Source: a virus
Taxonomy: Duplodnaviria; Heunggongvirae; Uroviricota; Caudoviricetes
Length of the DNA: 64,000 nucleotides
Strand: one strand, 5' to 3'
IMG/VR virus record: IMGVR_UViG_3300028577_000006
Position numbers and translations under genes: made by a program. Every line of letters begins with the position of its first letter. The first letter of the stretch is position 1. Positions 1 through 52,174 of the stretch are shown here, piece after piece. Under the pieces are notes generated by a model. It worked only from the letters and a program-made list of their open reading frames with translations, was not told where the DNA came from and searched no databases.

Positions 1-644
1 CTGCTGCCGCGGTTCGCGAAGACGAGGGCAGCGATGCTGCCGCCAACGAGCCAGGTCGTCCACGACATGCCCAGCGGACCCGTGACCGTGCCGTCCGCCT
101 TCGTGGTCTCCAGGAACGAGTACCACTTCTTCGGAGCGCTCGTGACCGGCGCTGGTGTGGTCCAGATCGGCGTCGGTGCCATCGAGCCGTCCGACTGCTG
201 CGTCGGGACGGTCGCGATCGAGATCGGCGCTTGGACCGGCGCGGGCGTCGTGACTGGTACCGCCGTCATGATCGGGTTCGAAGTGTCCGCCGGAGCGATC
301 ACGCTGTTCGGATCGACATAGCCGCCCGGGTCGGCAACGTCGGTGCCGAGACCAAGCAGGCCCATGAGACCGCGGGCAGCCCGAATGGCGGGCGTCGCGC
401 GCAGGTCACCCGGCGCGTACCACATCGGCACCGCGCGCATACCACGCATCGCACGGATGCCACGCGACTCGATCGCCGTCGCGCCCATGCCGCTCATCGC
501 GCGCGAAGCACGCATCGCGCGAATCGCCTCTGGCGTCCGCCACACGCCAGGCCGTGTCGGGTTCGGGTATAGGATGGTCGGCCGACTGGCAGCGAGACCG
601 CCGCGATTCGCGGCAAGACCAACGGACGATGGACGGTACGACAT
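1..644 (-). CDS. Putative virion membrane protein, truncated by the window edge (MSYRP start, Arg/Ala/Met-rich N-terminus, Pro/Thr linker, hydrophobic C-terminal segment)
   Basis: Hand translation from ATG at 644: MSYRPSSVG...IRAMRASRAMSGMGA...GLLGLGTDV...MSWTTWLVGGSIAALVFANRGS, open to position 1. Absent from the ORF track because it is incomplete. Confidence 0.75.
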   Translation of the reverse strand, partial: MSYRPSSVGLAANRGGLAASRPTILYPNPTRPGVWRTPEAIRAMRASRAMSGMGATAIESRGIRAMRGMRAVPMWYAPGDLRATPAIRAARGLMGLLGLGTDVADPGGYVDPNSVIAPADTSNPIMTAVPVTTPAPVQAPISIATVPTQQSDGSMAPTPIWTTPAPVTSAPKKWYSFLETTKADGTVTGPLGMSWTTWLVGGSIAALVFANRGS

Positions 645-647
645 GGA

Positions 648-1586
648 TCAGGCCTTCCTGGCGGCGCGACGAACGCGCTTCGAGTGACGACGATTCTTCC
701 TGGACTTCCGCGACCGATTCGGAGTGGACTTCCGACTCATCAACACCCAGCCAACAGCCGCAAGAGCGGCAGCTCCAACGCCGACATACACCCATGTCAT
801 GTACGATCCAGACGCCGCTGACGACGTGACCGGCATCGCCTGGGTCGTCGAACCAACCAAATCGGACGGGCCGACACCTGGGTCTCCAGTCTGCGCGGTA
901 GCCATCGCTGCATTTGCCGCATCCTGCGCTGCCTGCGCTGCTGCCGCTGCCGCGTCTGCATTGGCCTGCGCCTGCTGAGCGGCGGCGGCATCAGACGCTG
1001 CCTGCGTCGCAGCCGCCTGCTGCGCAGCCTGATTGGCGACCGCCTGCTGCGTCTGTGCAGTGACCAAGGCACTCGTCGCCGCCTGTGTCTTGAGCGCCGC
1101 CAACGCGTTCAGCTTCACAGACACGGTCGGCAGCGTTCCGTCATACTTGCCAGCTGCGATATCAGACAGAAGACCTGTGATCGAAAGAACGCCAAGCTGT
1201 CGTAGCGCAGCCGCCGCGTCAGCGTACGGAGCACCCGCTAGCAGCGATGCGTTCATACTCAGTGCGTTTGCTGCATACGCTTGCAAAGCCGGCGACATGA
1301 TGTTCAGCGCCTGTGTCACAGCCGCCGGATCGATCTTGCCGAACGAGTTAGGCTTGAGCGCCTTCAGCAGCACACCAGAGGTGATCATCGGCGTTCGGTT
1401 CGTGTCGGATGACCCGAAGCTGCCACCGAGTGCGGTCAGATACGTGCCGAGCGCAGCGATGATCGCTGGATCGATGCCGACGTTCGTGCGCGCGGTTGGC
1501 GCTGGCGCGCTCGTGTTCAGATTCAACGCCGGGAAAGCGAGTCCGAGTCCTCCGAAACCTGCCTGCCCTTCCTCATAATAGCTCAT
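648..1586 (-). CDS. Ala/Gln-rich putative virion membrane protein with C-terminal TM helix and basic tail
   Basis: 312 aa ORF, ATGA overlap with the upstream gene, TM-like WVYVGVGAAALAAVGWVLM followed by SRKSTPNRSRKSRKNRR. Confidence 0.8.
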   Translation of the reverse strand: MSYYEEGQAGFGGLGLAFPALNLNTSAPAPTARTNVGIDPAIIAALGTYLTALGGSFGSSDTNRTPMITSGVLLKALKPNSFGKIDPAAVTQALNIMSPALQAYAANALSMNASLLAGAPYADAAAALRQLGVLSITGLLSDIAAGKYDGTLPTVSVKLNALAALKTQAATSALVTAQTQQAVANQAAQQAAATQAASDAAAAQQAQANADAAAAAAQAAQDAANAAMATAQTGDPGVGPSDLVGSTTQAMPVTSSAASGSYMTWVYVGVGAAALAAVGWVLMSRKSTPNRSRKSRKNRRHSKRVRRAARKA

Positions 1587-3814
1587 CTGGCTCTCCTACT
1601 CGTGCGACGGCGACGGGTGTTCTTGCGTGAGCGCGGATGCTCATGACTCGACACCGCGATCAGCGCGCCTGCGACTGCGACGGCCAATAGTAGCGGAACA
1701 GCGACGCTGTTGTCGACCTGACCGAGCCCAGACATACCGCCTGCCCTCTTCCACTGAGCGAGCAGGTCATCCATTCCTGCCGGATACGACTTGTACTCGG
1801 TCTTCCAGGCCTGGATTGTGTTCGCAACCAGCTGGGCGCCGGCCTGACTGGTGGGGCTCAAAGCACGCAGACACGCTAGCACATCCTGCTCGATCTGCCT
1901 TGCATGTGCGTCCGCATTTCCCTTACGGATGGGATCGGCGTTGATCGAGTTGACCTCAGCCCACTTCGAAACCGCCAGCTGATGGCCGGCGATGCATCGA
2001 CTGAGCTTTGCCGTCGTCAAATCGCGGTCTGCATTCGCATCGCCGTGAGCGCCCAGCCAGGCATATCCCACTGCGAGCGCAGCCAGCAGAGGGTTGATGA
2101 CGTTGGACAGCTCCCAGGCAGCCTTGTCGAAGTTGCTGGCCTCGGAAGTCCCCGACTGGTCACAGCCGGCACCCTTGATCTCGAAACACGACCAGCGCGC
2201 ATTCGCCGAGGCGAGCGCCGTGTTGATCACCACGATCACTTGGCGAATGAGCGTGCCGTTCTTGTCGATCTGTGTCGCAACCGCAGGCGCAGGCGCAGGC
2301 GTAGCAGCGGCGCCGAGACCGCTGGTTGGCGTTGCGCTGAATGTCGTGGGGCCAAGAAGGTTCGCAACTCTCTTGACGGTCGCCGCTGTGACCAGAAGCG
2401 GCACAGAGATCTGCGTCTGCGCAGCGTTCGATGCGTCCACCGCGATCGACATCGTCCCTGCCAAGAAGCCGGCGAGCTGCTGGCCAGCGGACATGAAGAC
2501 GCTGCGGATGTTGTTGCGTCTGACCGGATCGGAGTAATCGACGCTCTTGTACTCGTTGAACTTCGCGTTCACGTAGTCGTTGAGCGACGTCGCGGTGCGA
2601 ACGCGCAGCGCGATGTACGGCTTGTACCCGTCATCGCCAAAGCGAGCGAGCGAAGCAGAGACCTGCGCATACAGGTTCTGAAGCGGCACGACTGTCTGCG
2701 TCCACTCCTGCCCAGCCTTCGCGTCGCTTGCGTCCTCGTTCACGCCAAAACGATCGCAGCCAGATGCCGCCGTCAGAAAGCAGACCCAGCGCGAGTACGC
2801 CCGATCCAGCGCCGTCAAGATGATCGCCTCGGCCTTCTGCAAGCCGCTCAGCGTCGCGTAAATCGGTGCTGTCAGATCTGGAATGATGGCATTCAGATCG
2901 TTGACCGACTCAACCGCGCTGCCCCTCATGTCGGAGCGCGTGTTGTTCCTGTTCAGCGCGTCCGAGTAGTCGATCGTCTTGTACTGCGCGAACTTCTGAT
3001 TCGCCCAGTCGCTGGCGGCGGCTGCGGGGGCGAGCGTGATGCGCGCATAGTTGATGTTGTCCGCCTGAAGCGGGCTACTTCCAAAGCTTCCGATCTTTTG
3101 GACAGACAGTCCGTGAGCGTCCAACAGCGGCTGGATGGTGCGGGACTGCTCCTGCGCAGCCTTGTCGTTGCCGTGGTCTTCGTTCGCGCCGAATCGGCCA
3201 CAGCCCGATGCATCGTACTGGTAACAGATGCGGCGTGAGACCGCAGAATCGAGGGCTCGCAAGATCGACTGCCTGACAGCGTTTGCAGTCGCCACGTCCG
3301 TCGCCGCGCCCGCCGCAGACGCGTACTTCCCGGCCATCGCCTGGCCAGTGTCCAACATGTTCTTGCGGATGTTGTTCCGCTTCAACGCGTCAGAGTAGTC
3401 GGTGCTCTTGTACTCGTTGAACCAGTTCTCGATCTGCTCGAAGTCCTGGTCTGCATCAGACATGTTCGACATCGCGTTGTCGACGTTGCCGCCAGCCGCG
3501 CGCGTCTGCTGAATGCACTGAGCCACCTGCGTCTCGATGCGCGAGATGGACGGCTGATCTGGCGACGCTGCCGCCTTCATCTGAACCAGCTGCTGCTGCA
3601 ACTGCGCACACTGCGCTGCCAGTGCGGCAGGGTCAGGTCCGGCCGCTGCACCACTACCAGTAGCGCCGCCGCCTGCGGCTGCCCCGCTGCCGACGAGTGC
3701 GTACGCGGCCACGCCGCCAACGACTGCAAGGCCGCCGACCGCAAGCAGCTTCTGCTTGGTCGAGAGCGGATTGCGTCGCATCCGGCGCCTTCTCGTCTTC
3801 ATTCGGCGGGCCAT
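1583..3814 (-). CDS. 743 aa protein with two TM segments and three Cys-containing internal repeats
   Basis: N-terminal RRRMRRNP plus TM; repeats YKSxDYSDxxxRNNxR and C-x7-GC-x4-(N/S)E; C-terminal TM plus RKNTRRRRTSRRAR. Confidence 0.85.
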   Translation of the reverse strand: MARRMKTRRRRMRRNPLSTKQKLLAVGGLAVVGGVAAYALVGSGAAAGGGATGSGAAAGPDPAALAAQCAQLQQQLVQMKAAASPDQPSISRIETQVAQCIQQTRAAGGNVDNAMSNMSDADQDFEQIENWFNEYKSTDYSDALKRNNIRKNMLDTGQAMAGKYASAAGAATDVATANAVRQSILRALDSAVSRRICYQYDASGCGRFGANEDHGNDKAAQEQSRTIQPLLDAHGLSVQKIGSFGSSPLQADNINYARITLAPAAAASDWANQKFAQYKTIDYSDALNRNNTRSDMRGSAVESVNDLNAIIPDLTAPIYATLSGLQKAEAIILTALDRAYSRWVCFLTAASGCDRFGVNEDASDAKAGQEWTQTVVPLQNLYAQVSASLARFGDDGYKPYIALRVRTATSLNDYVNAKFNEYKSVDYSDPVRRNNIRSVFMSAGQQLAGFLAGTMSIAVDASNAAQTQISVPLLVTAATVKRVANLLGPTTFSATPTSGLGAAATPAPAPAVATQIDKNGTLIRQVIVVINTALASANARWSCFEIKGAGCDQSGTSEASNFDKAAWELSNVINPLLAALAVGYAWLGAHGDANADRDLTTAKLSRCIAGHQLAVSKWAEVNSINADPIRKGNADAHARQIEQDVLACLRALSPTSQAGAQLVANTIQAWKTEYKSYPAGMDDLLAQWKRAGGMSGLGQVDNSVAVPLLLAVAVAGALIAVSSHEHPRSRKNTRRRRTSRRAR

Positions 3815-3827
3815 TCGTCGTTCTCCC

Positions 3828-4118
3828 TCAGAGCCAGGACTGCGTGGCGCACATGTCCATGCATCGGCTGTACGCGCCCTCGGTCAGTGCACCTGAGCAT
3901 CGGTCTTCGCAGACCGGAGCCGTGTCGTAGTAGTAGCCGTACCCGTAGTAGCCAGGGCCCCAGCCCCACGACGGATAGCCCCAGCCGCTGCGACCGCGGC
4001 GCAGGCGTGGTCGACCGCGCCCGCCATGACCGCCGTGCCCATGACCGCCGTGCCCATGGCCACCGCCGCCGCCCTTGCCGAGGCCGCTGGCGATTCTCAT
4101 CGGCTGTCGATAGCTCAC
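3828..4118 (-). CDS. Small Gly/His/Tyr-rich protein with C-terminal Cx3C...Cx3C
   Basis: MSYRQPMRIASGLGKGGGGGHGHGGHGHGGHGG...CEDRC...CMDMC; GTGA overlap with the upstream stop. Confidence 0.7.
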   Translation of the reverse strand: MSYRQPMRIASGLGKGGGGGHGHGGHGHGGHGGRGRPRLRRGRSGWGYPSWGWGPGYYGYGYYYDTAPVCEDRCSGALTEGAYSRCMDMCATQSWL

Positions 4119-4450
4119 GAACGCCTACCCTTCCGTCGCTTCTTGCGCGTGCTCTTGTTCGCTGTTGGCCTCGGATGAGTCATGCGGTCGTAGAAGAACC
4201 ACAGTGACCATGCCGAGAGCGCCAAGCTCGCGTAGGCGACGTACTCCATGCGAACGGCCCGCGAGCGGTCTTCATCCACGGTCGTGGTCTGTCCGAGGTG
4301 GTCGTTCATCAGACGCGGCGGATGCGTCTGGAAAACCATCGGAGAGACGGTGCCACGCTGACGCTGGGGCTGCCCATAGTCGGCGAACACCCAGGGGTTC
4401 GTGACGCCCCAGTTCTGGTACCCGAGCGCTCGGTTGACCTTGTACGTCAT
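4115..4450 (-). CDS. Small membrane protein with basic tail
   Basis: MTYK start, TM-like YVAYASLALSAWSLWFFY, tail PTANKSTRKKRRKGRRS. Confidence 0.75.
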   Translation of the reverse strand: MTYKVNRALGYQNWGVTNPWVFADYGQPQRQRGTVSPMVFQTHPPRLMNDHLGQTTTVDEDRSRAVRMEYVAYASLALSAWSLWFFYDRMTHPRPTANKSTRKKRRKGRRS

Positions 4451-4453
4451 GAT

Positions 4454-4993
4454 TCAGCGCTTCTTCCTGCTCGTGCGCTTGGCGCGGCGACTGCCGCGCT
4501 TCTTCGGACGACTGTTGCGCTTCACGCGACGACGATTGGCACGCAGAGGGTGGCCGCCGATCTTGACCTCCACCTCGTCACCGTCCTCGTCGGTCCGATC
4601 CATGTCGGGCGTCCAGTCGGGATGCGACGGCGAGTACAGCGAGAGATCGAACGAGCCGAACTTCTTCGCCGCTGCTGTGAGCTTCTTGCCAGCCGCTTCT
4701 TCCCAATCATCGTCCTCCCAGAATCCGACGCCATGATCGTTGCGCGTCATCCAGAAGTCGTAGCCGGCCTGCTCGTCCTCGTCGCCACGGCCGAGAAACG
4801 CACCGCTCCAGATCGGCTCGTTGTCGGCGTAGAACTTCTCGCAGTCACGCTTCATCGCTGCGAGTGTCTCTGCGTCGATGTCGCTCGGCTCGTAGTTCTT
4901 GTCGAGCGGATAGCCGCCGCTGTCCGTGCTCTCGTCGTTCGAGGCAAAGAGCGCAGCTTCGATGTACGCATCCGTGAAATCCTTGAGACTCAT
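4454..4993 (-). CDS. Conserved-looking phage protein (AGYDFWMTRNDHGVGFW motif) with basic tail; possible virion core protein
   Basis: 179 aa ORF with an acidic globular part and tail RANRRRVKRNSRPKKRGSRRAKRTSRKKR. Confidence 0.75.
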   Translation of the reverse strand: MSLKDFTDAYIEAALFASNDESTDSGGYPLDKNYEPSDIDAETLAAMKRDCEKFYADNEPIWSGAFLGRGDEDEQAGYDFWMTRNDHGVGFWEDDDWEEAAGKKLTAAAKKFGSFDLSLYSPSHPDWTPDMDRTDEDGDEVEVKIGGHPLRANRRRVKRNSRPKKRGSRRAKRTSRKKR

Positions 4994-5289
4994 CGTGCTC
5001 TCCTGCTCGTGCGGCGCGCACGACGACTCGTGCGGCGATTCTTCTTCATCGGACCCAGCGTCGTCAGGCCTTCGCGCTTGCGGTCAGCGTCGATCTTCAT
5101 CCGCTTCGCAACCACAGCGCTCATCGCGGCGTGGAAGTCCGGACTCGTCGAAGTCAGCGACAGGGCGCCGCTTTCCAAGATGAGCTTCACGTGCCAGCGA
5201 ACGCCGTCGTAGCGACAGTCGATCGCACGCTCGCCGCGGGGGCGAGCCCGCACCCAACGTTCCGCCTGCATACGCGCCTTCGTGGTCAC
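4990..5289 (-). CDS. Small basic protein with Arg-rich tail
   Basis: GTG start at 5289 overlapping the upstream TGA; ends KKNRRTSRRARRTSRRAR. Confidence 0.65.
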   Translation of the reverse strand: MTTKARMQAERWVRARPRGERAIDCRYDGVRWHVKLILESGALSLTSTSPDFHAAMSAVVAKRMKIDADRKREGLTTLGPMKKNRRTSRRARRTSRRAR

Positions 5290-6050
5290 CGGCGGCCTCG
5301 GCTCGTGCGCCTCTTCGTGCGGCTGGTACGCTTCAGATTCTCTGTGACGCGCCAAACGGAGCGGACAAGAGCACGGCGCTCTGCGGCCGTCAGCTCAAAC
5401 TTCTTCTGAACACGCGTGAGCGCCGCCTCACGCTTGGTGCCCAGATTTCGCAGCTTCAGCGCCATCACACGTGCTGCTGTGAACCTGTCCGGACCATTCC
5501 TCTTCGATGCGTTCTGGACGCGATACTCGTTCGCCCACTCCTCTGCCATTTCCTTCGCGACCTGCTTGCGGGTCGCCGGAGTGAACAGACGGTTCCACGT
5601 TCCGCCAACATCCTTGGCGTACTTCTTCGCGCCTTCATCCACGATCCAGCCGAAGCCCTTCGCGGCGAGAGCGAGATCGAACTTGCCCTGCTGCATGCGC
5701 CTGACGAGCGCTTCGCGATACGCCGCGCCCTTCTGGTACGTCGGGTAGTCGTTGTCGATGAAGAGCTTCAACTCGTCCGCTTGCTCTTGGTCGAGCGAGC
5801 CGCCGCGTGCATTTGATGTGAGTGGCTGCGAGTCCCAAACAATCCACACCCAGCCGCGCTTGGGCGCGTCCGTGTACAGGCGCTGGGGGTAGGTCTCCCG
5901 ACGAAGCCACGCGAGCTGGCCACTTGGCATCTGCACGCGCACCTCACGTCCCCAATCAGGAAGCTTGACGCCCGTGGCGCGTGCGAGCTTGCCCGCGTCC
6001 GCGTCAGAGATGCGGTAGTGCGTGCCGCCAGAGATGGACTTCAGCTTCAT
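5286..6050 (-). CDS. Hypothetical protein (ADELKLFIDND...GKFDLALAAK domain) with basic tail; possible core protein
   Basis: 254 aa ORF with coding-like GC3; tail VTENLKRTSRTKRRTSRGRR. Confidence 0.75.
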   Translation of the reverse strand: MKLKSISGGTHYRISDADAGKLARATGVKLPDWGREVRVQMPSGQLAWLRRETYPQRLYTDAPKRGWVWIVWDSQPLTSNARGGSLDQEQADELKLFIDNDYPTYQKGAAYREALVRRMQQGKFDLALAAKGFGWIVDEGAKKYAKDVGGTWNRLFTPATRKQVAKEMAEEWANEYRVQNASKRNGPDRFTAARVMALKLRNLGTKREAALTRVQKKFELTAAERRALVRSVWRVTENLKRTSRTKRRTSRGRR

Positions 6051-6052
6051 GA

Positions 6053-6400
6053 TCAGTCCTCGTTGCCAGCCTTCATGTTCCGGCGAGCGAAGCGCTTGTT
6101 GCGCTCACTCTTCTTCTTGCGCGCGTGGCGCGGGCGCCACCATCCGAAGTACGCCCAGATCGCGCCCATGCCGACTGCGCCGACCGCGAGTCCGAACGTC
6201 ATCGTGCGGTAGAACGGGACCGTGTCCGTTGCCGTCGTCGCAGGCGTCTGCCCGATACCGTACAGCGGATACGGCGCCATGCCGGCTGCCTGACGGGCGC
6301 CGCCACTCGCTCGCTGCGCCTCCGCCGCGTACATGACGGGCCCTGGGCTGCCGTCCTGATCGACCACGTAGTCCGCTGCGCTCATCTTTCGCGGTGCCAT
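6053..6400 (-). CDS. Small membrane protein with basic tail
   Basis: LYGIGQ motif, TM-like FGLAVGAVGMGAIWAYFGWW, tail RPRHARKKKSERNKRFARRN. Confidence 0.75.
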   Translation of the reverse strand: MAPRKMSAADYVVDQDGSPGPVMYAAEAQRASGGARQAAGMAPYPLYGIGQTPATTATDTVPFYRTMTFGLAVGAVGMGAIWAYFGWWRPRHARKKKSERNKRFARRNMKAGNED

Positions 6401-6403
6401 GAC

Positions 6404-7900
6404 TCAGTTCTTCCTTCCACGGCGCGACGAGCGCCGGCTGTTCCGCTTCATCTGACGCATCATCTTCCGGAAGCTGTTCTTGACGTTCGCGGTCATCTTC
6501 TTGCCCGTGTCCGTCTGCGTCGCGGCGAGATAGCCGACTCCGAGCACGCCCACGCCGATCGCGATGTTCCTCGGCGTCAGAAGACCGAGCCCAGAAGAAG
6601 AAGTCGCAGGCGCCGGTGCAGGGGCCACAAGCGAGTCCGGCGCAGTCTGCGTGACCTCGCCCATGCCCGCTGCTGCCGGCGAGTGATAGAAGCTGCCCAG
6701 GTCGGCCTGAAGCTTCTTCTGATCGGCAACGAGCGGACCGATGTGGTCGGCTGCCGCCTTCGAGAGCGCCGGCTTGTTCGCGCGAATCGACGAGGCCATC
6801 CGATCGAGTCGCGGCAGACCGCCGCCAGCCTTGGCCCGATCCGACAGGTCGCGCATCGTCGCATGCATCACGCAGTGCGCGAGCGTGTCTTCGAGCGCTG
6901 CGTCGGGCTTGTAGCCCATCTGCACGAGACGATCGGCGACGAGCTTCGCCTTGCGCGCCATCTGCGGACCGAGCGCATCCGTCGCCGACGCGAGGAACTG
7001 CGAGCGCGTCGCCTGGCTCGGCATCAGCTTCGCCTCGGAGATGAGGCAGCTGGCCGCCTTTCGCCCGAACGCCTCGATGTGCGAGGACGGCCCGAGACGA
7101 TCCGACTGCATCTTCGGCATCGGCCGACGACCCTGCGCGTTTCCGTTCATGAACGGGCTGAACGCCTTCGGCGGCGGCGCGAGCGCCGGCACGCGCTTGC
7201 TGAGTGGAACGCCACTCGCGTTGACCTGCGTGACGGTCCAGTTGTCAGCGGTGGAATCCCACATCGCCGACTGCTGCATGCCGTCTGGATCTTCCTCTGC
7301 GATGTACGCCGGCTGCGCGAACTGGTTGGCAAAGATGCCGTCTCGCGCGCGGAACGTGACACCCTCTTCGACGTCGAAGATTCCAGAGCCGATGACGTTC
7401 TGTTCGCTGTCGTCGTACTCGTAGGACGAGCGATCGTACTCGGTGAGCGGATCGATGCCCTCGTGCGATGGCATCTCGTTCTCTTGCGACGGAACGAACG
7501 CCGCCTGGCGCGCGATCGAGTCGGGCGTCGCGTAGCGCGGCATCAGGCCGTTCGACGACTGACGAGCGTCCGAGTCGCCGAGATCCGACATGTCCGTGCC
7601 CTGCTGCGAGTACGGACGATAGCCGGAGTTGTCCGCGATCTGCCACGGGTTCTCGCCGTACGTCGTCTGATTCATGCCAGGACCGTTGTCCATGTCATCC
7701 ATCATGACGAAGCTCGACGTGCCCTCGACATCCGTCGCCGGAGCAGGACCACCGCCGCGCTTCGGGAGTTCCTCCTGAAGCTCATCGGTCAGGAAGTCGT
7801 CATCCACGGACGAGCCCTGGTAGTCCTGCACGTCGAGGTTGGCATTGCCGCGCATCGTCGGCAGCTCCATCTCGTCATCTGCAAAAAGGTCTTCGCTCAT
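6404..7900 (-). CDS. Protein with acidic disordered N-terminus, helical domain, C-terminal TM and basic tail
   Basis: ATG at 7900 (MSEDLFADD) with upstream GGGAAGAG; TM IAIGVGVLGVGYLAAT; tail MTAN...KRNSRRSSRRGRKN. Confidence 0.8.
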   Translation of the reverse strand: MSEDLFADDEMELPTMRGNANLDVQDYQGSSVDDDFLTDELQEELPKRGGGPAPATDVEGTSSFVMMDDMDNGPGMNQTTYGENPWQIADNSGYRPYSQQGTDMSDLGDSDARQSSNGLMPRYATPDSIARQAAFVPSQENEMPSHEGIDPLTEYDRSSYEYDDSEQNVIGSGIFDVEEGVTFRARDGIFANQFAQPAYIAEEDPDGMQQSAMWDSTADNWTVTQVNASGVPLSKRVPALAPPPKAFSPFMNGNAQGRRPMPKMQSDRLGPSSHIEAFGRKAASCLISEAKLMPSQATRSQFLASATDALGPQMARKAKLVADRLVQMGYKPDAALEDTLAHCVMHATMRDLSDRAKAGGGLPRLDRMASSIRANKPALSKAAADHIGPLVADQKKLQADLGSFYHSPAAAGMGEVTQTAPDSLVAPAPAPATSSSGLGLLTPRNIAIGVGVLGVGYLAATQTDTGKKMTANVKNSFRKMMRQMKRNSRRSSRRGRKN

Positions 7901-7949
7901 GTCCGTCTCTTCCCGCTTGTTGTAGGCGCCCAGCCTGTTTCGGTATCGA

Positions 7950-8663
7950 TCAACTAAGAAGAATCCACGCAAGGGCGGCGACACCCAGAATCCCGCCGCC
8001 AGTCATGATCAATCTGTTACGCGCCACCGTCGCACTGGCCGCTGACTGCTGAGCAAGAAGCAGCTGCTGCTGCGCTTGCTGAGCCTGAGTGGCGGCGAGT
8101 GTCGCCTGAGCTTCGCGCTGTTCCCGAGAACAGTCCATCGCTCCACCGGCGATTTGTGAACCAACTCCGATGAGGCCACCGATGATTGTACCGTAGACCG
8201 GTACGATGCTGACGATCCCGCCAGCAGTTGCTGCACCGCCAGCGATTGTGCAGCCTGCGGCACGATCGTTCTCGGAAAGCTGACCCAGCGGGGTGTCGAG
8301 GAGTCGGTCCCAGCCGAGCTTGTTGCCGACTTCGTTCCGGACCGCCTGCGCGCCGCGCTTGTAGACGCGCTCCGCAAGCGTGCCGCGAATCGCGTCGAAC
8401 ATCGCTTGGTCCTTGTTGCGATCCTTGAGATTCGTCGCGTACCGAACAGTGACCGACGGCCACAAGCCCGGCTGAAGCTCGTCGAGCTTCGCGCGAAGGA
8501 CGGCGTACCGATCGGCGACAGGCGCCCTGGCGACCGCCAACATGATGCTGCTCGCATCGAGAGACGCGCGCGCGAAGATCGGATTCGAGGACGCAGCCGC
8601 CCCGACAGAGATGCCTGTGGCTTCTCCGAGACCTCGACGCCTGCGTGCTGCTCGATACGACAC
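7950..8663 (-). CDS. Putative virion membrane protein, paralog of the gene at 8667-9428
   Basis: MSYRAARRRRGLGE start; ASSIML...QPGL...KDQAMFD domain; glycine-zipper segment; C-terminal TM. Confidence 0.8.
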   Translation of the reverse strand: MSYRAARRRRGLGEATGISVGAAASSNPIFARASLDASSIMLAVARAPVADRYAVLRAKLDELQPGLWPSVTVRYATNLKDRNKDQAMFDAIRGTLAERVYKRGAQAVRNEVGNKLGWDRLLDTPLGQLSENDRAAGCTIAGGAATAGGIVSIVPVYGTIIGGLIGVGSQIAGGAMDCSREQREAQATLAATQAQQAQQQLLLAQQSAASATVARNRLIMTGGGILGVAALAWILLS

Positions 8664-8666
8664 ACG

Positions 8667-9428
8667 TTACTTCTTCAGAACGCCGTAGAGGATGGTCGCG
8701 ATCACCAGCCCGCCGCCGCCGAGCAGTAGGTACTGGAAGGTCATCTGCTCTTGGTGCTGTTGCAGCTGAAGCTGCTGGAGCCCACTGCTCTGCGCTGCCT
8801 GTGCCTGCGCCTGCGCGGTCTGAGCCTGAAGCGCCAGCTGACCCGCGTTGCATCCGGCGATCTGCCCGCCAGCCTGAGCACCCGTGATGCCAGATGTCGA
8901 ACTACTGCCACCGGTGTTGAACTGCGCGAGCAATCCGCTGACGAGACCGGTGGTGCCAGCGCCGTACGAGCAAAACAGCGCGTTCGCATCGTTGACGCCC
9001 TGACTCGTGTGGCCTGCGACCTCCGCGACTGTCTGCCCGAGACCGGACACCCCCTTGGCAGCGGCGAGCGTCCGCGCTGTCAGGACGTTGGCAACGGCAG
9101 CAGTGATGACGTCGAACATCGCCTGGTCCTTCGCCGTCGTCGGCTTGCCAGCCGAAAGACGGTGGAAGTTCAGCTTGGCAGTCTCTCCAAGGCCAGGCTG
9201 CGCTGCGTTCAGGATGGAGACCATCTCTCCAAGACGCTTGGCAGGCGGAACCGAAGCCATACGGAGCATGATCTGCGATGCGAGGACGGACGCCGAAGAG
9301 ACGATCGGGTTCGTCTGCGTCAGAGCGCTCGCAACAACCGGAGCCTGCTCTGGCTCCACGGCACCCAGCCCGAGAAGGCCGCGACGCGACATCCCTCGGA
9401 GCCTGGAGACTCGGCCTCGGTAGCTCAT
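8667..9428 (-). CDS. Putative virion membrane protein, paralog of the gene at 7950-8663
   Basis: Start at ATG 9428 (MSYRGRVSRLRGMSRRGLLGLGA) with SD AGGAGAAGG; ASQIML...QPGL...KDQAMFD; C-terminal TM. Confidence 0.8.
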   Translation of the reverse strand: MSYRGRVSRLRGMSRRGLLGLGAVEPEQAPVVASALTQTNPIVSSASVLASQIMLRMASVPPAKRLGEMVSILNAAQPGLGETAKLNFHRLSAGKPTTAKDQAMFDVITAAVANVLTARTLAAAKGVSGLGQTVAEVAGHTSQGVNDANALFCSYGAGTTGLVSGLLAQFNTGGSSSTSGITGAQAGGQIAGCNAGQLALQAQTAQAQAQAAQSSGLQQLQLQQHQEQMTFQYLLLGGGGLVIATILYGVLKK

Positions 9429-9841
9429 GACCTTCTCCTGCGACGACGACGACCGTTTGCGGTCGACGGCGCTCTTTTGGGAGAGCGCATGGCCAGCATG
9501 ATGATTCCGAAGAGCACTACCGCGCCTCCGATCGCCAGATACACCGGCGCATTGCTCGACTGCGACATCGGCACCTGGGACGCCTGAAACCATCCGGGCT
9601 GCGTGCTTGCAGCAAACGATGCGTTGATGTCCTTCTGTGGAGTGATCGACGCCGATGGGATGCCGCTCTTCGTTCCAGACGCAGGGGCGCCACTCGTCGT
9701 CGGCTGAGCCAGCTGCGAGATCGCTCCGTCGATGTCCAGCTGCTGCGCGGGCGTAGACGAGATCGTGACCTGGCCAAAGCCATGCCCGCCATGATGCTGG
9801 GCGCGCAGAGATCCAGCGCGCGCTGTCGGCTTGTAGCTCAC
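9425..9841 (-). CDS. Small membrane protein with basic tail
   Basis: GTG start at 9841 (MSYKPTARAG...HGFGQ); TM VYLAIGGAVVLFGIIMLAM; tail STANGRRRRRRRS. Confidence 0.75.
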   Translation of the reverse strand: MSYKPTARAGSLRAQHHGGHGFGQVTISSTPAQQLDIDGAISQLAQPTTSGAPASGTKSGIPSASITPQKDINASFAASTQPGWFQASQVPMSQSSNAPVYLAIGGAVVLFGIIMLAMRSPKRAPSTANGRRRRRRRS

Positions 9842-10179
9842 CTGGACCTCTTCCTGCGACGACCGTTGCGCCTCGCAGCAGCGGGCTTGCCGAAGCCTTG
9901 TGCGAGCGCGATGGGGAGACCGAGCGGCCAGAACGCGCCGCCGACGATGCCCCAAACGAGCGCCCAGCCGATGGACTGATTGCGCTTGTAACCGTGGTAC
10001 GCGAGAGCAACGACCGAAGCCGTACCCGCAACGTACATCGCGGTGCGCACCGGCTGCGAGATGGTCAGAGCCGTGCTCGTGGACGTCGTCGCCACCGGCG
10101 TAGCCGGTGCCGCCTGCTGTCCAAGGCCTGCCGCCGCGAAGAGCCCGCCGCCCGGCCCGTAATAACCCATGCCCTGCAT
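9838..10179 (-). CDS. Small multi-TM membrane protein with basic tail
   Basis: MQGMG...AAGLGQ; two hydrophobic segments; tail AARRNGRRRKRSR. Confidence 0.75.
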   Translation of the reverse strand: MQGMGYYGPGGGLFAAAGLGQQAAPATPVATTSTSTALTISQPVRTAMYVAGTASVVALAYHGYKRNQSIGWALVWGIVGGAFWPLGLPIALAQGFGKPAAARRNGRRRKRSR

Positions 10180-10201
10180 GTCGATTGCTCGCTTTCTTCT
10201 C

Positions 10202-10816
10202 TCAGAAGGATTGGACGTCGAAGTTCGAGTACTGCTTGACGCGCTTCAGCATGCTCGCCGTGCGACGTCCGGCGACCGGATCGAGTACCCACCAGGTCTT
10301 GGTGCGCGGGTCCTGTGCCGTCGCGAACACGTGCGTGTGTACCTTCGGCTCACCGGGCCAGCGCGGCGAAAATCCGACTGTCACGAAGCGGACTGGCGCA
10401 CCGATGCAAAGACACGTCGTGCCGATCGCGAGAGCAAGGTCGTCGCAATCGAACGCACCACGACCCGAAAGCGCGTCATCGAGAAGGCGCTCTGGATCGC
10501 GAATCATCTCGACGTGTACGGGGTCGCGCGTGTACCTGCCGGCGTTTCCCCACCAACGACAGATCGAGACGACCTCCGAAACGTAGTCCTTCGGTCGTAC
10601 GTTGCAGATGATCTGCTCAGCGTGGCGGCGCACCTTGAACGAGCGCTCGCCACGATCACCCAGTGCAAGCTGGATCATCTTCGCAACCGTGTGGTCAGTG
10701 CCACGATACGGTTCGAGAGTGCCTACGGCGTTGTTGTACGCCGGTGAATAAACGCTTGCGCGGAGCATCGGCTGTTTTTTTAGCCGTACCCGAAGCGCCC
10801 GGAAGGAGTCTCGCAC
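10202..10816 (-). CDS. Transglutaminase-like cysteine protease (Cys-His-Asp triad)
   Basis: RYTRDP...GAFDCDDLA...VRFVTVGF...HTHVF...WWVLDPV matches the transglutaminase-like core. Start uncertain (10816 or 10768). Confidence 0.8.
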   Translation of the reverse strand: MRDSFRALRVRLKKQPMLRASVYSPAYNNAVGTLEPYRGTDHTVAKMIQLALGDRGERSFKVRRHAEQIICNVRPKDYVSEVVSICRWWGNAGRYTRDPVHVEMIRDPERLLDDALSGRGAFDCDDLALAIGTTCLCIGAPVRFVTVGFSPRWPGEPKVHTHVFATAQDPRTKTWWVLDPVAGRRTASMLKRVKQYSNFDVQSF

Positions 10817-10847
10817 GACATGTGGGCTCCGTGCAAGTGCTCGGGCG

Positions 10848-11183
10848 CTATCGTCGGGTCGACAGCTTCAGGCCATTGCGGACCATGACCTTCGGCAACG
10901 CATCTCTGGATACAATCGCGGGCCGGGCACTCGTACGCTCCACGCGCACGTCGACCACTTCGCGACCACGCACGACCTTCACAAGGGCAAATGCGTCTCC
11001 GGGGACAACGCCGACGCGCTGAAACGCCGCCACCGCACCGGGTGGCAGCGTTCCAAGCTCTCCGTCGATCCAGCGCACGTTCAACCTTGGCTGCAAGGTG
11101 AGCAGCTGGCCTACTCGGCGCTCCATCGTCTCCCTTTTGGGCTGCGGTAGAGTCCTGTAGTTGCCGATGTTCTTCGGATTCAC
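10848..11183 (-). CDS. Hypothetical protein
   Basis: 111 aa ORF co-oriented within the operon. Confidence 0.55.
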   Translation of the reverse strand: MNPKNIGNYRTLPQPKRETMERRVGQLLTLQPRLNVRWIDGELGTLPPGAVAAFQRVGVVPGDAFALVKVVRGREVVDVRVERTSARPAIVSRDALPKVMVRNGLKLSTRR

Positions 11184-11194
11184 GGAACCGAAGA

Positions 11195-13828
11195 CTACTC
11201 GCTCTCGTCTTCGCGCGCGAGTTCCTCACGGAGCAGTGCCATCGACGCACGCACGAACTGCTGGCCGCCGGGCGAGACTCCGGCGCTTCGCGGCTCGACG
11301 GCTGCGATGCCCGCCAAGATCTCCTGATCGCTCTTGGCGGCCAGGCCCTCCAAGATCGCAGTCGGATAGTCGCCGTCCATGATCTTGTCCACGAAGTCCT
11401 CGGGCTCATCGCCCGACACCACTGCTTCGTGAATCATCTTGGCGACCATCTGCGCGATCTGCTTCTCGATGGCGTTCATCGGGACCTTCTCCGGGCGTGC
11501 GGCGCCTGCGGCCTGCGGCGCCTGCGGCTGTTGTGGTGCGCCCTGCGGCAGTTGCTGCTGAGGCGGCTGCTGCTGAGCAGGCGCTTGTGGTTTAGCCTGT
11601 GAGGGCTTTCCCGCAAAGGGACCAGGCTTCTTCTCCCACGGCGGGATCGGATGCGGAAGTCCTTCGGCGAGATTCGGAAGCGGATCGAAGTTGGCTGAGC
11701 CGCCGCGCTTGCGACGAACGGGCGCCGGGCGCGGATCGCCATGCACCATGCCACCCGGTGGCATCGGCTGGCGCGGAGCTGGCGCCGGCTGCCTTGGCTT
11801 CGGTTCGCCCGCCGGAAGCAGACGAGCTGGCGCTGGAGCCGCGCCGACCGGCGTCAGCCGGGGGCCGTGCTCGGTCTGCACAACCATCATCGGTCCCATG
11901 GGCGTTTCGACCATCTGACCCGGAACCATGCCGCCGCCCTGCTGCTGTGGCGCGGCCGGTCCGCGCACGAGGCTGCCCAAGGCGGTCAGAAGCTCTGGAC
12001 CGCGCTCTGCGATCGTCTGCACGACTTCGTTCACGTCCAGGCCGGACCCAGAGAGGCCGATTCCAGACGACGAACTCGAAGACGAGGAAGACGCGACGGG
12101 CGTGTTCTCGACCAGGCCCAGGCCGTGTTGCGCCGCTTCACGGAACTCGCGGAAGCGAGCCATCTGCGCAACCGGATCGTGCGTGTCCTGGAGCTTGCTG
12201 CGGACTTCGCCGATCTCACGCACCTTGGTGTCGATCTCCTGTTGAAGCCAACGCACGCGCTCGGCGTGATTGGTCTCGATCATGGAGATGCGCGCCTCGT
12301 ACTGCTGCTTGATGCGCTCTTCGGCCTGATCTTGCCTGTCCTTCGCTGCCTGATCGCGCTCGTTCTGCTGATCGCGAGCACGATCTTGATCGCGCCGACG
12401 CTCGTCGCGCTCGTTCTTGATCTGCTCTTCGAAGCGCTGCTCTCGGTGCTTCCAAGACTCCCGCTCCGACTGAAGCTCTCGCGCACCAGCCTCACGAAGA
12501 GACGCGATCTCGCGATCGTGTGCAGCGCGTTCCATTCGCAGCTGCTCTTCCTGGCGAGCATCACGCGTCGTCTGTTGCTCGCGAAGCGCGGCGATCTCCC
12601 GCGAGTTGGCTTCGCGCGTCGCCGCGATTTCCCGCTCGTGCCCCGAGCGAAGGCTTTCGATCATCGACTGCTGCTGCTGACGCATGGCGTCCATCTCAGC
12701 ACGATGCTTCTCCGCCGACTGATCGATCACCTTGCCCGCAAGCTCCAGCTCGCCCCGCTGTGGCGGCTGCGGAGGAGGAGGCGGCGGCGGCTGAGGCATC
12801 GCCGACATGAGTTCGCGGAACTCGGACGCCAGGCTGGGACGATTGTTCTCCATCTCGTGAACCTTCCGCAGCTGCTCTTCCAAACTTCGCCGCTGATCTT
12901 CGACCGACTTCTCCAGCAGGCGGTAGCGCTCTTCGGCTCGCTCACGCTCCATCGCCAGGCGATCTTCCATCGCCTTCTTCTCCGCATCGAAGCGCTCTTG
13001 CGTGAGGCGCGTGACGTCGTTGGCCCGACGCTGCTCTGCCTCGATGATCGGCTGCGCAAGCTGTCGCGCTTCCTGGATGCCGACGTCAGCGCGGTCTTCT
13101 GCGCGCTCCGTCCGAGCACGCTCCGACACGATGACCTCTTTGAGCGCGCCCAGCGTGCTCTCGACGATCTTCGGGTCTTCTCGTGGCGACGAAGGAGGCA
13201 TCATCATCGTGGGGAAAGACGCTGCGGCAGATGCTCCGCCATCCTTGGCGTCCATCGTCTGCTGCGCGCGCGAAACACGATGCATCTTTGGCTCGCCCTG
13301 GATGTTCACGCGCACCGACTCGTAGTGCTGCGTGCCGATGTTCGTGCCGGACTTGGGCCCCACAACGCGCACGAGATATTCGCCGCCGCCGTACTCGTTC
13401 GAGATGAACGCTTCGTCGATCGGCTGGTCGTAGTCGTCGAGAAACCCGTCAGCCTTTCGTCCTCCGAAGAAGATCTTCGGCCACGTGCGATGGACCTGAA
13501 GCCTGAACTCGGGCCGCTGACCGATGCTGTACTTCGAGACCAGGTCTCCAAGCATCTTGACGTTCTCGACCGGCTTCGGCAGGTCTGGAACCACCGTGTG
13601 AAGCGCTTCCAGCTGCTCCAGCGTGATCGGCTTCAGGTCGTTCCTGTCCGCCTTCTCGGTCCGCGCTGACGCCATAGGAGACGGCATCTCGGCATCGTCG
13701 ACCTTGGACTCTTCGCCGTCGCCGTCGCTGTCGATGGCACGGGCCGCCGGCTTCTTCTTGCCGGCGCCACGCCTGTTCACGACGTTCTCGACGATCTTGT
13801 CGACCTCGTCCTCAGCCGCCTCAGACAC
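11195..13828 (-). CDS. 877 aa coiled-coil and Pro/Gln-rich protein; possible scaffold or membrane-assembly factor
   Basis: Long E/R/Q heptad-like central region, Pro-rich linkers, N-terminal VHRTWPKI...GGGEY domain. Confidence 0.85.
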   Translation of the reverse strand: MSEAAEDEVDKIVENVVNRRGAGKKKPAARAIDSDGDGEESKVDDAEMPSPMASARTEKADRNDLKPITLEQLEALHTVVPDLPKPVENVKMLGDLVSKYSIGQRPEFRLQVHRTWPKIFFGGRKADGFLDDYDQPIDEAFISNEYGGGEYLVRVVGPKSGTNIGTQHYESVRVNIQGEPKMHRVSRAQQTMDAKDGGASAAASFPTMMMPPSSPREDPKIVESTLGALKEVIVSERARTERAEDRADVGIQEARQLAQPIIEAEQRRANDVTRLTQERFDAEKKAMEDRLAMERERAEERYRLLEKSVEDQRRSLEEQLRKVHEMENNRPSLASEFRELMSAMPQPPPPPPPQPPQRGELELAGKVIDQSAEKHRAEMDAMRQQQQSMIESLRSGHEREIAATREANSREIAALREQQTTRDARQEEQLRMERAAHDREIASLREAGARELQSERESWKHREQRFEEQIKNERDERRRDQDRARDQQNERDQAAKDRQDQAEERIKQQYEARISMIETNHAERVRWLQQEIDTKVREIGEVRSKLQDTHDPVAQMARFREFREAAQHGLGLVENTPVASSSSSSSSSGIGLSGSGLDVNEVVQTIAERGPELLTALGSLVRGPAAPQQQGGGMVPGQMVETPMGPMMVVQTEHGPRLTPVGAAPAPARLLPAGEPKPRQPAPAPRQPMPPGGMVHGDPRPAPVRRKRGGSANFDPLPNLAEGLPHPIPPWEKKPGPFAGKPSQAKPQAPAQQQPPQQQLPQGAPQQPQAPQAAGAARPEKVPMNAIEKQIAQMVAKMIHEAVVSGDEPEDFVDKIMDGDYPTAILEGLAAKSDQEILAGIAAVEPRSAGVSPGGQQFVRASMALLREELAREDESE

Positions 13829-14462
13829 TCGGCGTACCGTCGGGCTTCTTGTCCGCCGCCGACGCCTCCGTCTCTGCCGCCTCCGACGCCGCGCCTTCTT
13901 CAGGCTCCTCGTCTTCGTCGCCGTCCTCGTCCTCGTCCTCGTCGTCCTCGTCGTCCTCGTAGTCGTCGTCTTCGTCCTCGTACGTGGTCATCTCTTCGAG
14001 GAGGATGTCGATCTGTTGCGAGACCGCTCCGTAGGCCTTCATGACCTCCTGATCCTCTGGCAGCTTCTTGGTCAGCAGAGCGCCGAGCGCGTGCATCGCG
14101 GCCACGATGGCCTGCACGGTTTCCATGGAGGCGCCGCCATCGTCGCCCTCGTCGTCGCCGATGTAGTCGTTCACCGTGCGACGGAGGCGATGGATGTCTT
14201 CGGCGTTGCTCGCTGCGAGCGCGTACGTGTCGTTGAGCGCTGGCCCGAAGATCTCGATGATCTGCACCATCTGCGGATACAGGAACTGCGCCACGAACTG
14301 CCGCAGCTGTTCCGGATCTGCGAACACCGGCTTGCCGCCGTTGCCCTTGTCCTTCAGCAGCTTCTTGCGCGAGCCCTGAAGGTCGCTCCGGAACTTCGCC
14401 AACATGGGCGCAAGCGGAACTTCGGTGGGCTGCTCGATCGACGTGCTCTCGTTTTCGCTCAT
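13821..14462 (-). CDS. Highly acidic protein with Asp/Glu-rich tail
   Basis: 213 aa ending in EDEDDDYEDDEDDEDEDEDGDEDEEPEE; overlaps both neighbours. Confidence 0.8.
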   Translation of the reverse strand: MSENESTSIEQPTEVPLAPMLAKFRSDLQGSRKKLLKDKGNGGKPVFADPEQLRQFVAQFLYPQMVQIIEIFGPALNDTYALAASNAEDIHRLRRTVNDYIGDDEGDDGGASMETVQAIVAAMHALGALLTKKLPEDQEVMKAYGAVSQQIDILLEEMTTYEDEDDDYEDDEDDEDEDEDGDEDEEPEEGAASEAAETEASAADKKPDGTPSV

Positions 14463-15022
14463 GTGCTCTCCTGCTGGTTCAACGCCTCTTCGACGTCGAT
14501 CTCGCCATAGTCACGGGCAGCTTCACGGGACTGCTGCTCCTGCCTGTTCTCGAAGTCGTCGATCATCTTCACCGACGCCGGATCCCGGCGCGCGTGCTCC
14601 TCGTCGCTGACCGACTCGCGCAAGTAGCAGGCGAAGATGGACGTCTCACCGATCTTCATCAGCTCGCTCTGGGACGCGAGACGCAGGCAGAATCGGTGGA
14701 TCTGCTGCGGTGCCGTGAAGCCCGCGATCTTGCCCTCGGCCTCGGTGAGCATCGGCGCGTAGTAGCGGCACGGCCGGCGGCCGGTCGCAACATCGCCCTT
14801 GCACACCAGCGTACGAGGGCTCACCCAAGACTTGGGACCGGGGTCTTCAGTCACGATTTGAACTCCCTGCCCAGGCGGCCCTTCCACCACGGCGAGCGCT
14901 CCGAACTCCACGTGTGCACCAAGCGGATCCGCAGGCATCGGTACCTGAAAATCACGCTCGGACACGCCAACCGTAGGTTTGCCGTCGTCCCCGGTAACGG
15001 GGATCTCGTCTGAAGCGCCCAT
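14459..15022 (-). CDS. Hypothetical protein, first gene of the leftward operon
   Basis: 187 aa ORF with high GC3 and ATGA overlap with the next gene. Confidence 0.7.
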   Translation of the reverse strand: MGASDEIPVTGDDGKPTVGVSERDFQVPMPADPLGAHVEFGALAVVEGPPGQGVQIVTEDPGPKSWVSPRTLVCKGDVATGRRPCRYYAPMLTEAEGKIAGFTAPQQIHRFCLRLASQSELMKIGETSIFACYLRESVSDEEHARRDPASVKMIDDFENRQEQQSREAARDYGEIDVEEALNQQEST

Positions 15023-52026: not shown

Positions 52027-52174
52027 CGTGCGGGCGACCTCGCAGCGCTAACTGCCGGTCGTCCTGTTCCCCGCGCCAGTTCCAGGTGGTACGGATGACT
52101 GATCGCGAATCTAACTGCCGCTCCCGACCGCGTCAAGCGCGAGTTGTCGGACAGTGCTGCGGTCAGGTGACAGC

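Follow-up and report, generated by a model that had tools for sequence, protein, structure and literature searches.

The 64,000-nucleotide stretch of DNA analysed here, referred to as the window, belongs to the IMG/VR virus record IMGVR_UViG_3300028577_000006 and encodes on its minus strand a transglutaminase-fold protein with a Cys-His-Asp triad (g15), next to which a series of late genes was identified whose products share a short Gly-hydrophobic-Gly motif. The window has a G+C content of 64%, no tRNA genes and two gene blocks, a minus-strand block (positions 1-15022) and a plus-strand block starting at about 15.4 kb, the products of the latter including a helicase, an archaeo-eukaryotic primase, an RNA ligase, an exonuclease, a phosphoesterase and an intein-bearing protein of 1535 amino acids (aa). 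It is a large virus-like genome, the source of which is a large, uncultivated and probably tailless bacterial virus. The late genes were defined as the minus-strand genes g01-g19 (n = 19), fourteen of which (g01-g14, positions 3-10179, 3389 residues) locate downstream of g15 and are, as judged from their common strand and from 4-nt gene overlaps, presumably co-transcribed. The 48 plus-strand proteins (13,600 residues) served as the early comparison set.

A preliminary description of this DNA had reported a G-[LMIF]-G motif in at least ten proteins of the block, had pointed to a Cys-His-Asp transglutaminase-like gene immediately ahead of them and had proposed a maturation protease acting on the motif. 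The gene was found directly upstream on the same strand as described, all 15 quoted motif instances are present in the respective genes, and unlisted ones were added in g12 (9186-9194), g10 (6584-6592) and g17 (12056-12064 and 12116-12124). Altogether the motif occurs 20 times in g01-g14, whereby 11 of the 14 proteins possess at least one site, and the variant HLGQ of g05 was likewise confirmed. Within-protein shuffling of g01-g14 (n = 5000) yielded a mean of 4.84 motifs (standard deviation 2.1) with none of the shuffles reaching the observed count, and the motif density amounts to 5.9 per 1000 residues as compared to 0.88 in the plus-strand proteins, whose 12 instances are slightly below their own expectation; the excess is thus 4-fold over composition and approximately 7-fold over the early genes, and the motif is more frequent than background. 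Its placement differs as well, since a site within the first 35 residues was found in 6 of the 19 late proteins but in 1 of the 48 early ones (Fisher p = 0.0016). A Met-Ser/Thr-Tyr start (M-[ST]-Y) is possessed by 7 of the 19 late proteins, three of them initiating from GTG (gene starts 644, 1586, 4118, 4450, 8663, 9428 and 9841), as opposed to none of the 48 early proteins. The claim that the motif-bearing block follows the enzyme gene stands for the 11 downstream proteins but has to be widened, as g16 and g17, which locate 5' of the enzyme gene, have the motif as well.

Relatives of the window were obtained by searching with the g15 protein, which has at least 141 metagenomic homologues. Two syntenic IMG/VR contigs were identified in this way, L001 (82% identity, a 297-kb contig) and L002 (71%), to which five further loci with DNA were added (L003 to L008, the downstream part of L007 being short); eight syntenic relatives are covered in all. 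The kept gene order consists of two small genes, a coiled-coil protein of approximately 800 aa, a protein of approximately 110 aa and the enzyme, followed by a membrane protein of approximately 110 aa, two paralogous proteins of approximately 230 aa, a protein of approximately 480 aa and so on. In six related loci the late genes carry 4.28 motifs per 1000 residues versus 1.38 in the divergently transcribed genes, and taken over nine loci, 143 late proteins with 154 motif instances were counted, 49 of which are located in the first 35 residues and outside membrane helices, while 20 fall into predicted helices; the latter are probably ordinary. In an unbiased tripeptide count, the leading non-repetitive words included MSY and GLG for the window, MSY, GLG and LGQ for L003 and GLG for L006; in the more divergent L002 none of MSY, GLG and LGQ reached top rank. 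Met-Ser/Thr-Tyr starts were found in 43 proteins across the nine loci, and the Ser, Thr and Tyr codons are varied, therefore selection acts on the protein. In 60 kb of a relative approximately 17 such starts were counted. ATGA start/stop overlaps may account for part of the Ser/Thr at position 2, but not for the Tyr.

The motif was located to three places, namely N-terminal leaders (usually with a Met-Ser/Thr-Tyr start), flexible linkers ahead of membrane anchors and the vicinity of some C-termini. The preliminary description had placed it between a leader and the body or anchor of the protein, which is correct for the leaders and linkers and is now extended by the C-terminal sites. A typical leader consists of M-S-Y, 0 to approximately 25 variable residues (Arg-rich in the lineage of the window), a small residue and then Gly-[Leu/Met/Ile/Phe]-Gly; in the L003 lineage the entire leader can be as short as 7 residues. 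Residue statistics taken over 134 non-membrane sites revealed Gln after the motif in 22% (background 5%), Gln, Glu or Asp in 40% (background 17%) and a small residue before the motif in 51% (background 40%), and the flanks are richer in Pro, Ser, Thr, Ala, Gly and Gln (share of 0.54 versus 0.45). As read from the sequences, a preceding small residue and a following Gln, Glu or Asp are more constant features than the adenovirus P4 residue considered below. Variants that lack the first Gly keep hydrophobic-Gly-Gln or hydrophobic-Gly-Glu, an example being HLGQ of g05, which corresponds to HLGLGQ in L008. A sub-type, G-[IL]-G-[NS]-Y, was identified at the N-terminus of the g16 orthologues and, in several proteins encoded by L001 and by its continuation (L009/L010), within the 6-20 C-terminal residues. 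The preliminary description had moreover attached meaning to six sites that fit the adenovirus consensus exactly. The G-x-G part of that consensus, (M/I/L)-x-G-x-G or (M/I/L)-x-G-G-x, is common to all sites by construction. Met, Ile or Leu at the adenovirus P4 position, two residues ahead of the first Gly, is found in only 25% of the 134 sites versus 14% of the background, hence this exact fit may be mostly coincidence.

Genes of the late block in the window, their Gly-hydrophobic-Gly sites and sub-type sites in relatives (residue numbers refer to the encoded protein)
Gene	Position	Strand	Site positions	Description
g01	3..644	-	345-353, 483-491	MSYR start; GMG aa 52, GLG aa 98; gene runs off the window
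g02	648..1586	-	1542-1559	MSYYEE leader; GFG-GLG aa 10-15
g03	1583..3814	-	1721-1729, 2312-2320	743 aa, doubly anchored; GLG-A aa 499, GLG-Q aa 696
g04	3828..4118	-	4077-4085	GTG start, MSYRQ; GLG-K aa 12; Gly/His-rich low-complexity body
g05	4115..4450	-	4292-4300	MTYK start; ALGYQ aa 8-12; variant HLGQ aa 51
g09	6053..6400	-	6251-6259	115 aa; YPLY-GIG-Q aa 48, 19 residues ahead of anchor
g10	6404..7900	-	6659-6667, 6584-6592	498 aa; GMG-E aa 412 in linker before C-terminal anchor and basic tail
g11	7950..8663	-	8625-8633	Leader MSYRAARRRR, then GLG-E aa 11; internal PLGQ aa 125
g12	8667..9428	-	9363-9371, 9186-9194, 9036-9044	MSYR leader, GLG-A aa 20; internal GLG-E aa 79, GLG-Q aa 129
g13	9425..9841	-	9773-9781	GTG start, M-S-Y-K; leader ends GFG-Q aa 21; C-terminal anchor, basic tail
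g14	9838..10179	-	10165-10173, 10120-10128	113 aa, two-helix membrane protein; GMG aa 3, GLG-Q aa 18, GFG aa 95
g15	10202..10768	-		Transglutaminase-fold Cys-His-Asp protein (candidate leader peptidase); open reading frame extends to 10816
g16	10848..11183	-	11163-11171 (sub-type G-[IL]-G-[NS]-Y)	Small protein upstream of enzyme gene; N-terminal NIGNY; orthologues G-[LI]-G-[NS]-Y
g17	11195..13828	-	12056-12064, 12116-12124	877-aa coiled-coil protein; GIG-L aa 589 in Ser/Gly-rich linker, GLG-L aa 569
Sub-type G-[IL]-G-[NS]-Y in L001	L001:12568-12933			Further sites in the L001 continuation (L009/L010)

Conservation of the motif was read from alignments of seven protein families, in which the motif columns stand out against variable flanks, so that the motif proved to be conserved in the eight syntenic relatives. 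For the g12 site at aa 129, found in 12 of 13 family members, the three motif columns score 0.85/1.0/1.0 at a flank identity of 0.17; corresponding values are 1/1/1 against 0.44 for g10 aa 412, 1/1/1 against 0.52 for g09 aa 48 and 1/1/0.67 against 0.47 for the HLG of g05, which is kept in 7 of 7 orthologues. Both Gly columns of g09 aa 48 are invariant (seven sequences) and the hydrophobic class in between is kept in 6 of 6 orthologues, while at g10 aa 412 GMG or GLG is kept in 6 of 6 and followed by E, Q or D. This swap of Q, E and D among orthologues of one site would suit a primed-side preference without an essential Gln. The hydrophobic-Gly-Gln site of g14 is kept in 6 of 7 orthologues, the g16 motif in 6 of 8 and the GIG site of g17 in 5 of 8; g17 itself is possibly a scaffold. 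In addition, the counterparts of g04 and g13 in L001 carry MSYRQPLY-GLG-K and, at the matching place, SLGQ, and the g03 site at aa 696 is located immediately ahead of the C-terminal helix, the L008 homologue possessing GLG at aa 507 and aa 765. The tandem paralogues g11 and g12 (7950-9428), kept as a pair in 5 of the 7 relatives covering the region, provide a family of 14 members, of which 10 possess the leader; three others start at roughly the point at which the leader would be over, and in one more an MTY stub is left that has no motif. Where present, the leaders are variable, both in length and in sequence, over the stretch from MSY to the motif. As some members do without it, the leader behaves as a removable add-on module.

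Further observations on the block concern the proteins themselves. Between 648 and 10179 almost every protein ends in an Arg-rich tail, often opened by Asn (e.g., PNR...), and in the single-pass proteins this tail and the motif are on opposite sides of the anchor. The body of the 96-aa protein g04 (3828-4118) comprises a run of Gly and His (GHGHGGHGHGGHGG), after which come Gly/Tyr/Trp repeats and four Cys residues; the L001 counterpart is similar, and g04 may bind metal. An 800-aa protein of L007, considered as a polyprotein-like fusion joined by the motif, turned out to be unrelated to g10-g14. In the plus-strand block, matches of the 1535-aa protein (52154-56761) to terminase genes of phiCbK-like phages span only residues 300-712, i.e., its LAGLIDADG intein, and the host protein of this intein is without a recognised family.

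As for the enzyme, alignment indicates that translation of g15 most likely starts at MLRAS (10768). The protein scores 22.9 bits against Pfam Transglut_core (PF01841), for which the cut-off is 23.0, and this is the sole Pfam family found at E <= 0.01; two close homologues have a precomputed match to it and the homologue P0130 scores 23.3. The triad residues C124 (DCD[DE]), H162 (HTHVF) and D179 (VLDP) are invariant in 27 aligned family members, in agreement with the triad named in the preliminary description, and strict patterns around Cys, His and Asp are all present in 114 of 120 homologues. The codons around Cys124 (10397-10408) encode Asp-Cys-Asp-Asp/Glu, unlike the Gly-Gln-Cys-Trp of animal transglutaminases, and such an acidic environment might be favourable for basic leaders or for calcium. 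An AlphaFold2 model of g15 (mean predicted local distance difference test score of 83) matched transglutaminase-fold structures with a Foldseek probability of 1.0, and structural comparison gave Z scores of 13.4 for the putative protease 3kd4 (root mean square deviation 2.8 over 150 residues), 11.3 for the putative cysteine protease 3isr, about 11 for TG3, factor XIII and TG2, which have the same triad order, about 9 for PNGase, 8.8 for LapG and 8.4 for the CPR-C4 protease. Judged from this model, the transglutaminase fold of g15 is secure. A sequence-based profile search against solved structures returned only spurious summed matches to designed Kelch repeats.

With an identity of mostly 60-85% among relatives, as compared to mostly 30-75% for the neighbouring genes, g15 is the best conserved gene of the block. 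Its N-terminus has no hydrophobic signal segment and the protein no anchor, as far as the sequence tells, therefore it should be cytoplasmic unless packaged. A profile search with the enzyme family retrieved 1978 cluster representatives at E <= 0.001, 337 at <= 1e-10 and 37 at <= 1e-30, whereas translated searches (tblastn) of 50,697 phage records with g15, P0104, g10 and g05 gave no significant match. Four homologues (P0121, P0122, P0123 and P0152) carry an intein (Hint, in some cases together with LAGLIDADG) exactly before the catalytic Cys, which is the +1 residue, a position usual for inteins of indispensable active sites. In one lineage the enzyme itself (P0104, L007:10001-10654) possesses a leader-like N-terminal extension (MYRQ ... 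ALGLGE), the sole case among 120 homologues. When g15 (residues 17-204) and g09 (residues 18-66) were modelled as a complex, without controls, the score was 0.01, a value that says nothing about binding either way. In the 297-kb, 90%-complete genome of a relative (G001) the sole transglutaminase match is the orthologous Transglut_core protein, and Pfam families C5, C48, S78, ClpP, S49 and S77 gave no match, rhomboid, C39 and prepilin peptidase not having been searched.

Based on these findings it is suggested, tentatively and at a chance that we place a little below even, that the motif is part of a leader and cleavage code read by g15. The late operon would carry a common short linear signal in which a small residue precedes Gly, a hydrophobic residue (in most cases Leu) and a second Gly, with Gln, Glu or Asp frequently coming next, whereby the leader would first be the address that directs the protein into the particle. 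In the course of particle assembly, or once it is complete, the soluble g15 would recognise the sites and cut the precursors, thus stripping leaders and releasing ectodomains from their anchors. That the sites are cut, at which bond, and that g15 is the cutting enzyme is what we infer. Papain-like enzymes commonly select a hydrophobic residue at P2, hence a cut after the second Gly is the simplest guess; alternatively, the bond between the hydrophobic residue and Gly might be cleaved, as by the adenovirus protease at IVGL|G. Virion maturation proteases leave just such a pattern, in which numerous particle proteins that are not related to each other have sites in flexible segments, be it in a leader, a linker or a C-terminal stub, and LapG may be taken as a precedent for a transglutaminase fold acting as a specific leader-removing protease (PMC3032545). 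The cleavage code is further favoured by the enrichment and conservation of the motif, by the dispensable leaders, by the invariant triad and high conservation of g15, by the inteins ahead of its catalytic Cys, by the motif-bearing extension of P0104, by the six protease families without a match in G001 and by the motif in SSIP-1, a cultured phage described below. Other known signals were considered and dismissed, i.e., a twin-arginine signal (most leaders have neither RR nor a hydrophobic region), a prepilin-type leader (there is no hydrophobic segment after the Gly) and a tripartite signal of the sortase or PEP-CTERM type (the spacing between motif and anchor is not fixed, with values between 8 and above 250 residues, and a large number of the sites is N-terminal).

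Several points weigh against a cleavage code read by g15. The sites are candidate cleavage sites, and enzyme and motif are connected mainly by the adjacency of the genes, every relative found having both. The window sites g10 aa 437, g14 aa 3 and g17 aa 569 are not conserved, and a conserved Met-Ser/Thr-Tyr at the extreme N-terminus is puzzling for a leader that is to be discarded. Furthermore, the fold of g15 is as near to cross-linking transglutaminases (Z about 11) as to the putative proteases (13.4 and 11.3), and nearer to the former than to LapG (8.8), so that the fold does not separate the two activities; of the proposed transglutaminase-fold protease, fold and triad are accordingly borne out, whereas the assignment as a protease is one that the fold leaves equally to cross-linking enzymes. 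Amidases and cell-wall isopeptidases are likewise among the enzymes with a transglutaminase fold.

The last point leads to an alternative that we regard as rather unlikely, though to be taken seriously, according to which the motif together with the Met-Ser/Thr-Tyr start is an uncleaved address or docking tag for the capsid, a scaffold or a membrane patch, loading tail-anchored proteins, while g15 acts elsewhere, e.g., as a virion-borne cell-wall endo- or isopeptidase in entry or lysis. Protein-level conservation of the extreme N-terminus, as documented by the varied codons, is easier to understand if the leader is retained or read as an address; gp34 of the Salisaeta phage SSIP-1, a homologue of g15 introduced below, is a membrane-anchored structural protein, as expected of an entry enzyme, and phage transglutaminase-fold cell-wall isopeptidases exist, one of which (PeiP) is in the list of BFVD matches at a weak E of 0.025. 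The window's g15, however, has neither signal peptide nor anchor, some orthologues dispense with the leader, and the occurrence of N-terminal, linker and C-terminal sites in unrelated proteins fits the pattern of a protease better than a single docking geometry. It is improbable that g15 is a true transglutaminase for which the Gln after the motif serves as acyl donor, the resulting isopeptide cross-links stabilising the virion. Such an activity would be in line with the Z scores and triad order shared with factor XIII, TG2 and TG3 and with the over-representation of Gln after the motif, and the Gln donors of known transglutaminases are often found in flexible termini. Yet 78% of the sites are without this Gln, the alternation of Q, E and D at the orthologous g10 site would abolish the donor function, the Cys context is DCD[DE] and not GQCW, and the basic tails are rich in Arg instead of Lys.

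Cleavage of the sites by a host protease or an unrecognised viral protease, with g15 being unrelated to the motif, is likewise given a low probability. It draws on the fact that adjacency alone connects enzyme and motif and that many genes in these genomes are without a recognisable family; what speaks against it is that six common viral protease families are without a match in the 90%-complete relative, that g15 exceeds all other block genes in conservation and that the enzyme itself bears the motif in the lineage of L007. Least of all, and very improbable indeed, the motif could be a functionless by-product of Gly-rich low-complexity composition. The block proteins do contain 9.3% Gly and approximately 20 of the 154 instances fall into Gly-rich membrane helices, but composition-preserving shuffles never attained the observed count, the motif columns are conserved above their flanks, and distant relatives as well as SSIP-1 possess the motif too.

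Provided that the proposed cleavage takes place, a whole group of environmental viruses would build its particles from precursors, like adenovirus, poxviruses and T4 but with a different protease fold. The code would let the particle membership of many unannotated proteins be predicted, signal and g15 would constitute a simple tag-plus-enzyme pair, and a cut at G-[IL]-G-[NS]-Y near C-termini would release short aromatic peptides, recalling adenovirus pVIc. Virus-encoded precursor processing is an already known kind of system, and the observation made here is real. To our knowledge, no maturation protease is known for tailless membrane-containing phages, and literature searches brought up neither such a protease nor a leader common to several proteins in these phages; the earlier statement that no description for a bacterial virus was known thus agrees with these searches but has to be qualified by the enzyme homologue in cultured SSIP-1. 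Taken further, a particle-maturation system made up of a g15-type enzyme and a genome-wide Gly-hydrophobic-Gly leader code could be common to a large, mostly uncultivated clade of tailless membrane-containing viruses that includes SSIP-1 and giants of approximately 300 kb, in which case it would be the first such protease there, functionally convergent with the adenovirus protease even in the Gly-Leu-Gly site; this generalisation is offered with greater reserve still than the code itself.

The closest cultured counterpart was obtained from the viral structure database BFVD, in which the best match of g15 is an entry of 304 aa (E 1.5e-7), taken to be gp34 of SSIP-1 as judged by its length. BLAST comparison of gp34 (JN880423, 21296-22210) with g15 aligned 146 residues at 25% identity (E 2e-9, small database), and only these two routes, structure search and small-database BLAST, led to gp34. 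In SSIP-1, gp34 is annotated as a structural protein, the annotation giving neither function nor processing, and four small proteins with C-terminal anchors (ORF36, gp37, ORF52 and gp53) possess a GMG or GLG, which is located at residues 17-34. SSIP-1 differs from the window in that gp34 has a C-terminal membrane anchor whereas g15 is soluble, and in its genome of 44 kb, the window's closest relative having about 300 kb; as SSIP-1 is in culture, the question is directly testable. T4 resembles the proposed system in that several unrelated particle proteins possess a common short N-terminal leader ending at a simple consensus site and in that its own protease (gp21) is encoded among the morphogenesis genes, a role for which g15 is only a candidate. 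T4 is, however, a tailed phage and gp21 a serine enzyme (S77) cutting after Glu in Leu/Ile-x-Glu, whereas the candidate of the window is a cysteine enzyme, the motif is Gly-hydrophobic-Gly and the sites also occur in linkers before membrane anchors; neither a T4-type (S77) nor an HK97-type (S78) prohead protease was matched in G001.

LapG, which cuts off an N-terminal module between two Ala residues and thus at a site of small residues (PMC3032545), shares with g15 the transglutaminase-like fold and the Cys-His-Asp triad, and vasohibins are further proteases of the transglutaminase-fold group (PMC4866520). In contrast to g15, which has no signal segment, LapG is periplasmic, depends on calcium and acts on one giant adhesin; its structural match to g15 ranks below that of the transglutaminases, and the BTLCP/LapG family profile is not among the Pfam matches of g15 at E <= 0.01. 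The adenovirus protease (AVP, adenain), which cleaves sites of the type IVGL|G (PMC4246237), resembles the system suggested here in acting on many precursor proteins of a jelly-roll-capsid virus with Gly-x-Gly-type sites and basic DNA-binding segments, the pVIc-releasing site being Gly-Leu-Gly, and some of the sites in both are near C-termini, from which short peptides would be released. As the preliminary description had stated, the enzymes are unrelated, since adenain (Peptidase C5, clan CE) has a fold other than the transglutaminase-like fold of g15, and G001 was found to be without a C5 (adenain) or C48 (Ulp1) match. By analogy, the resemblance to the adenovirus system would be convergent.

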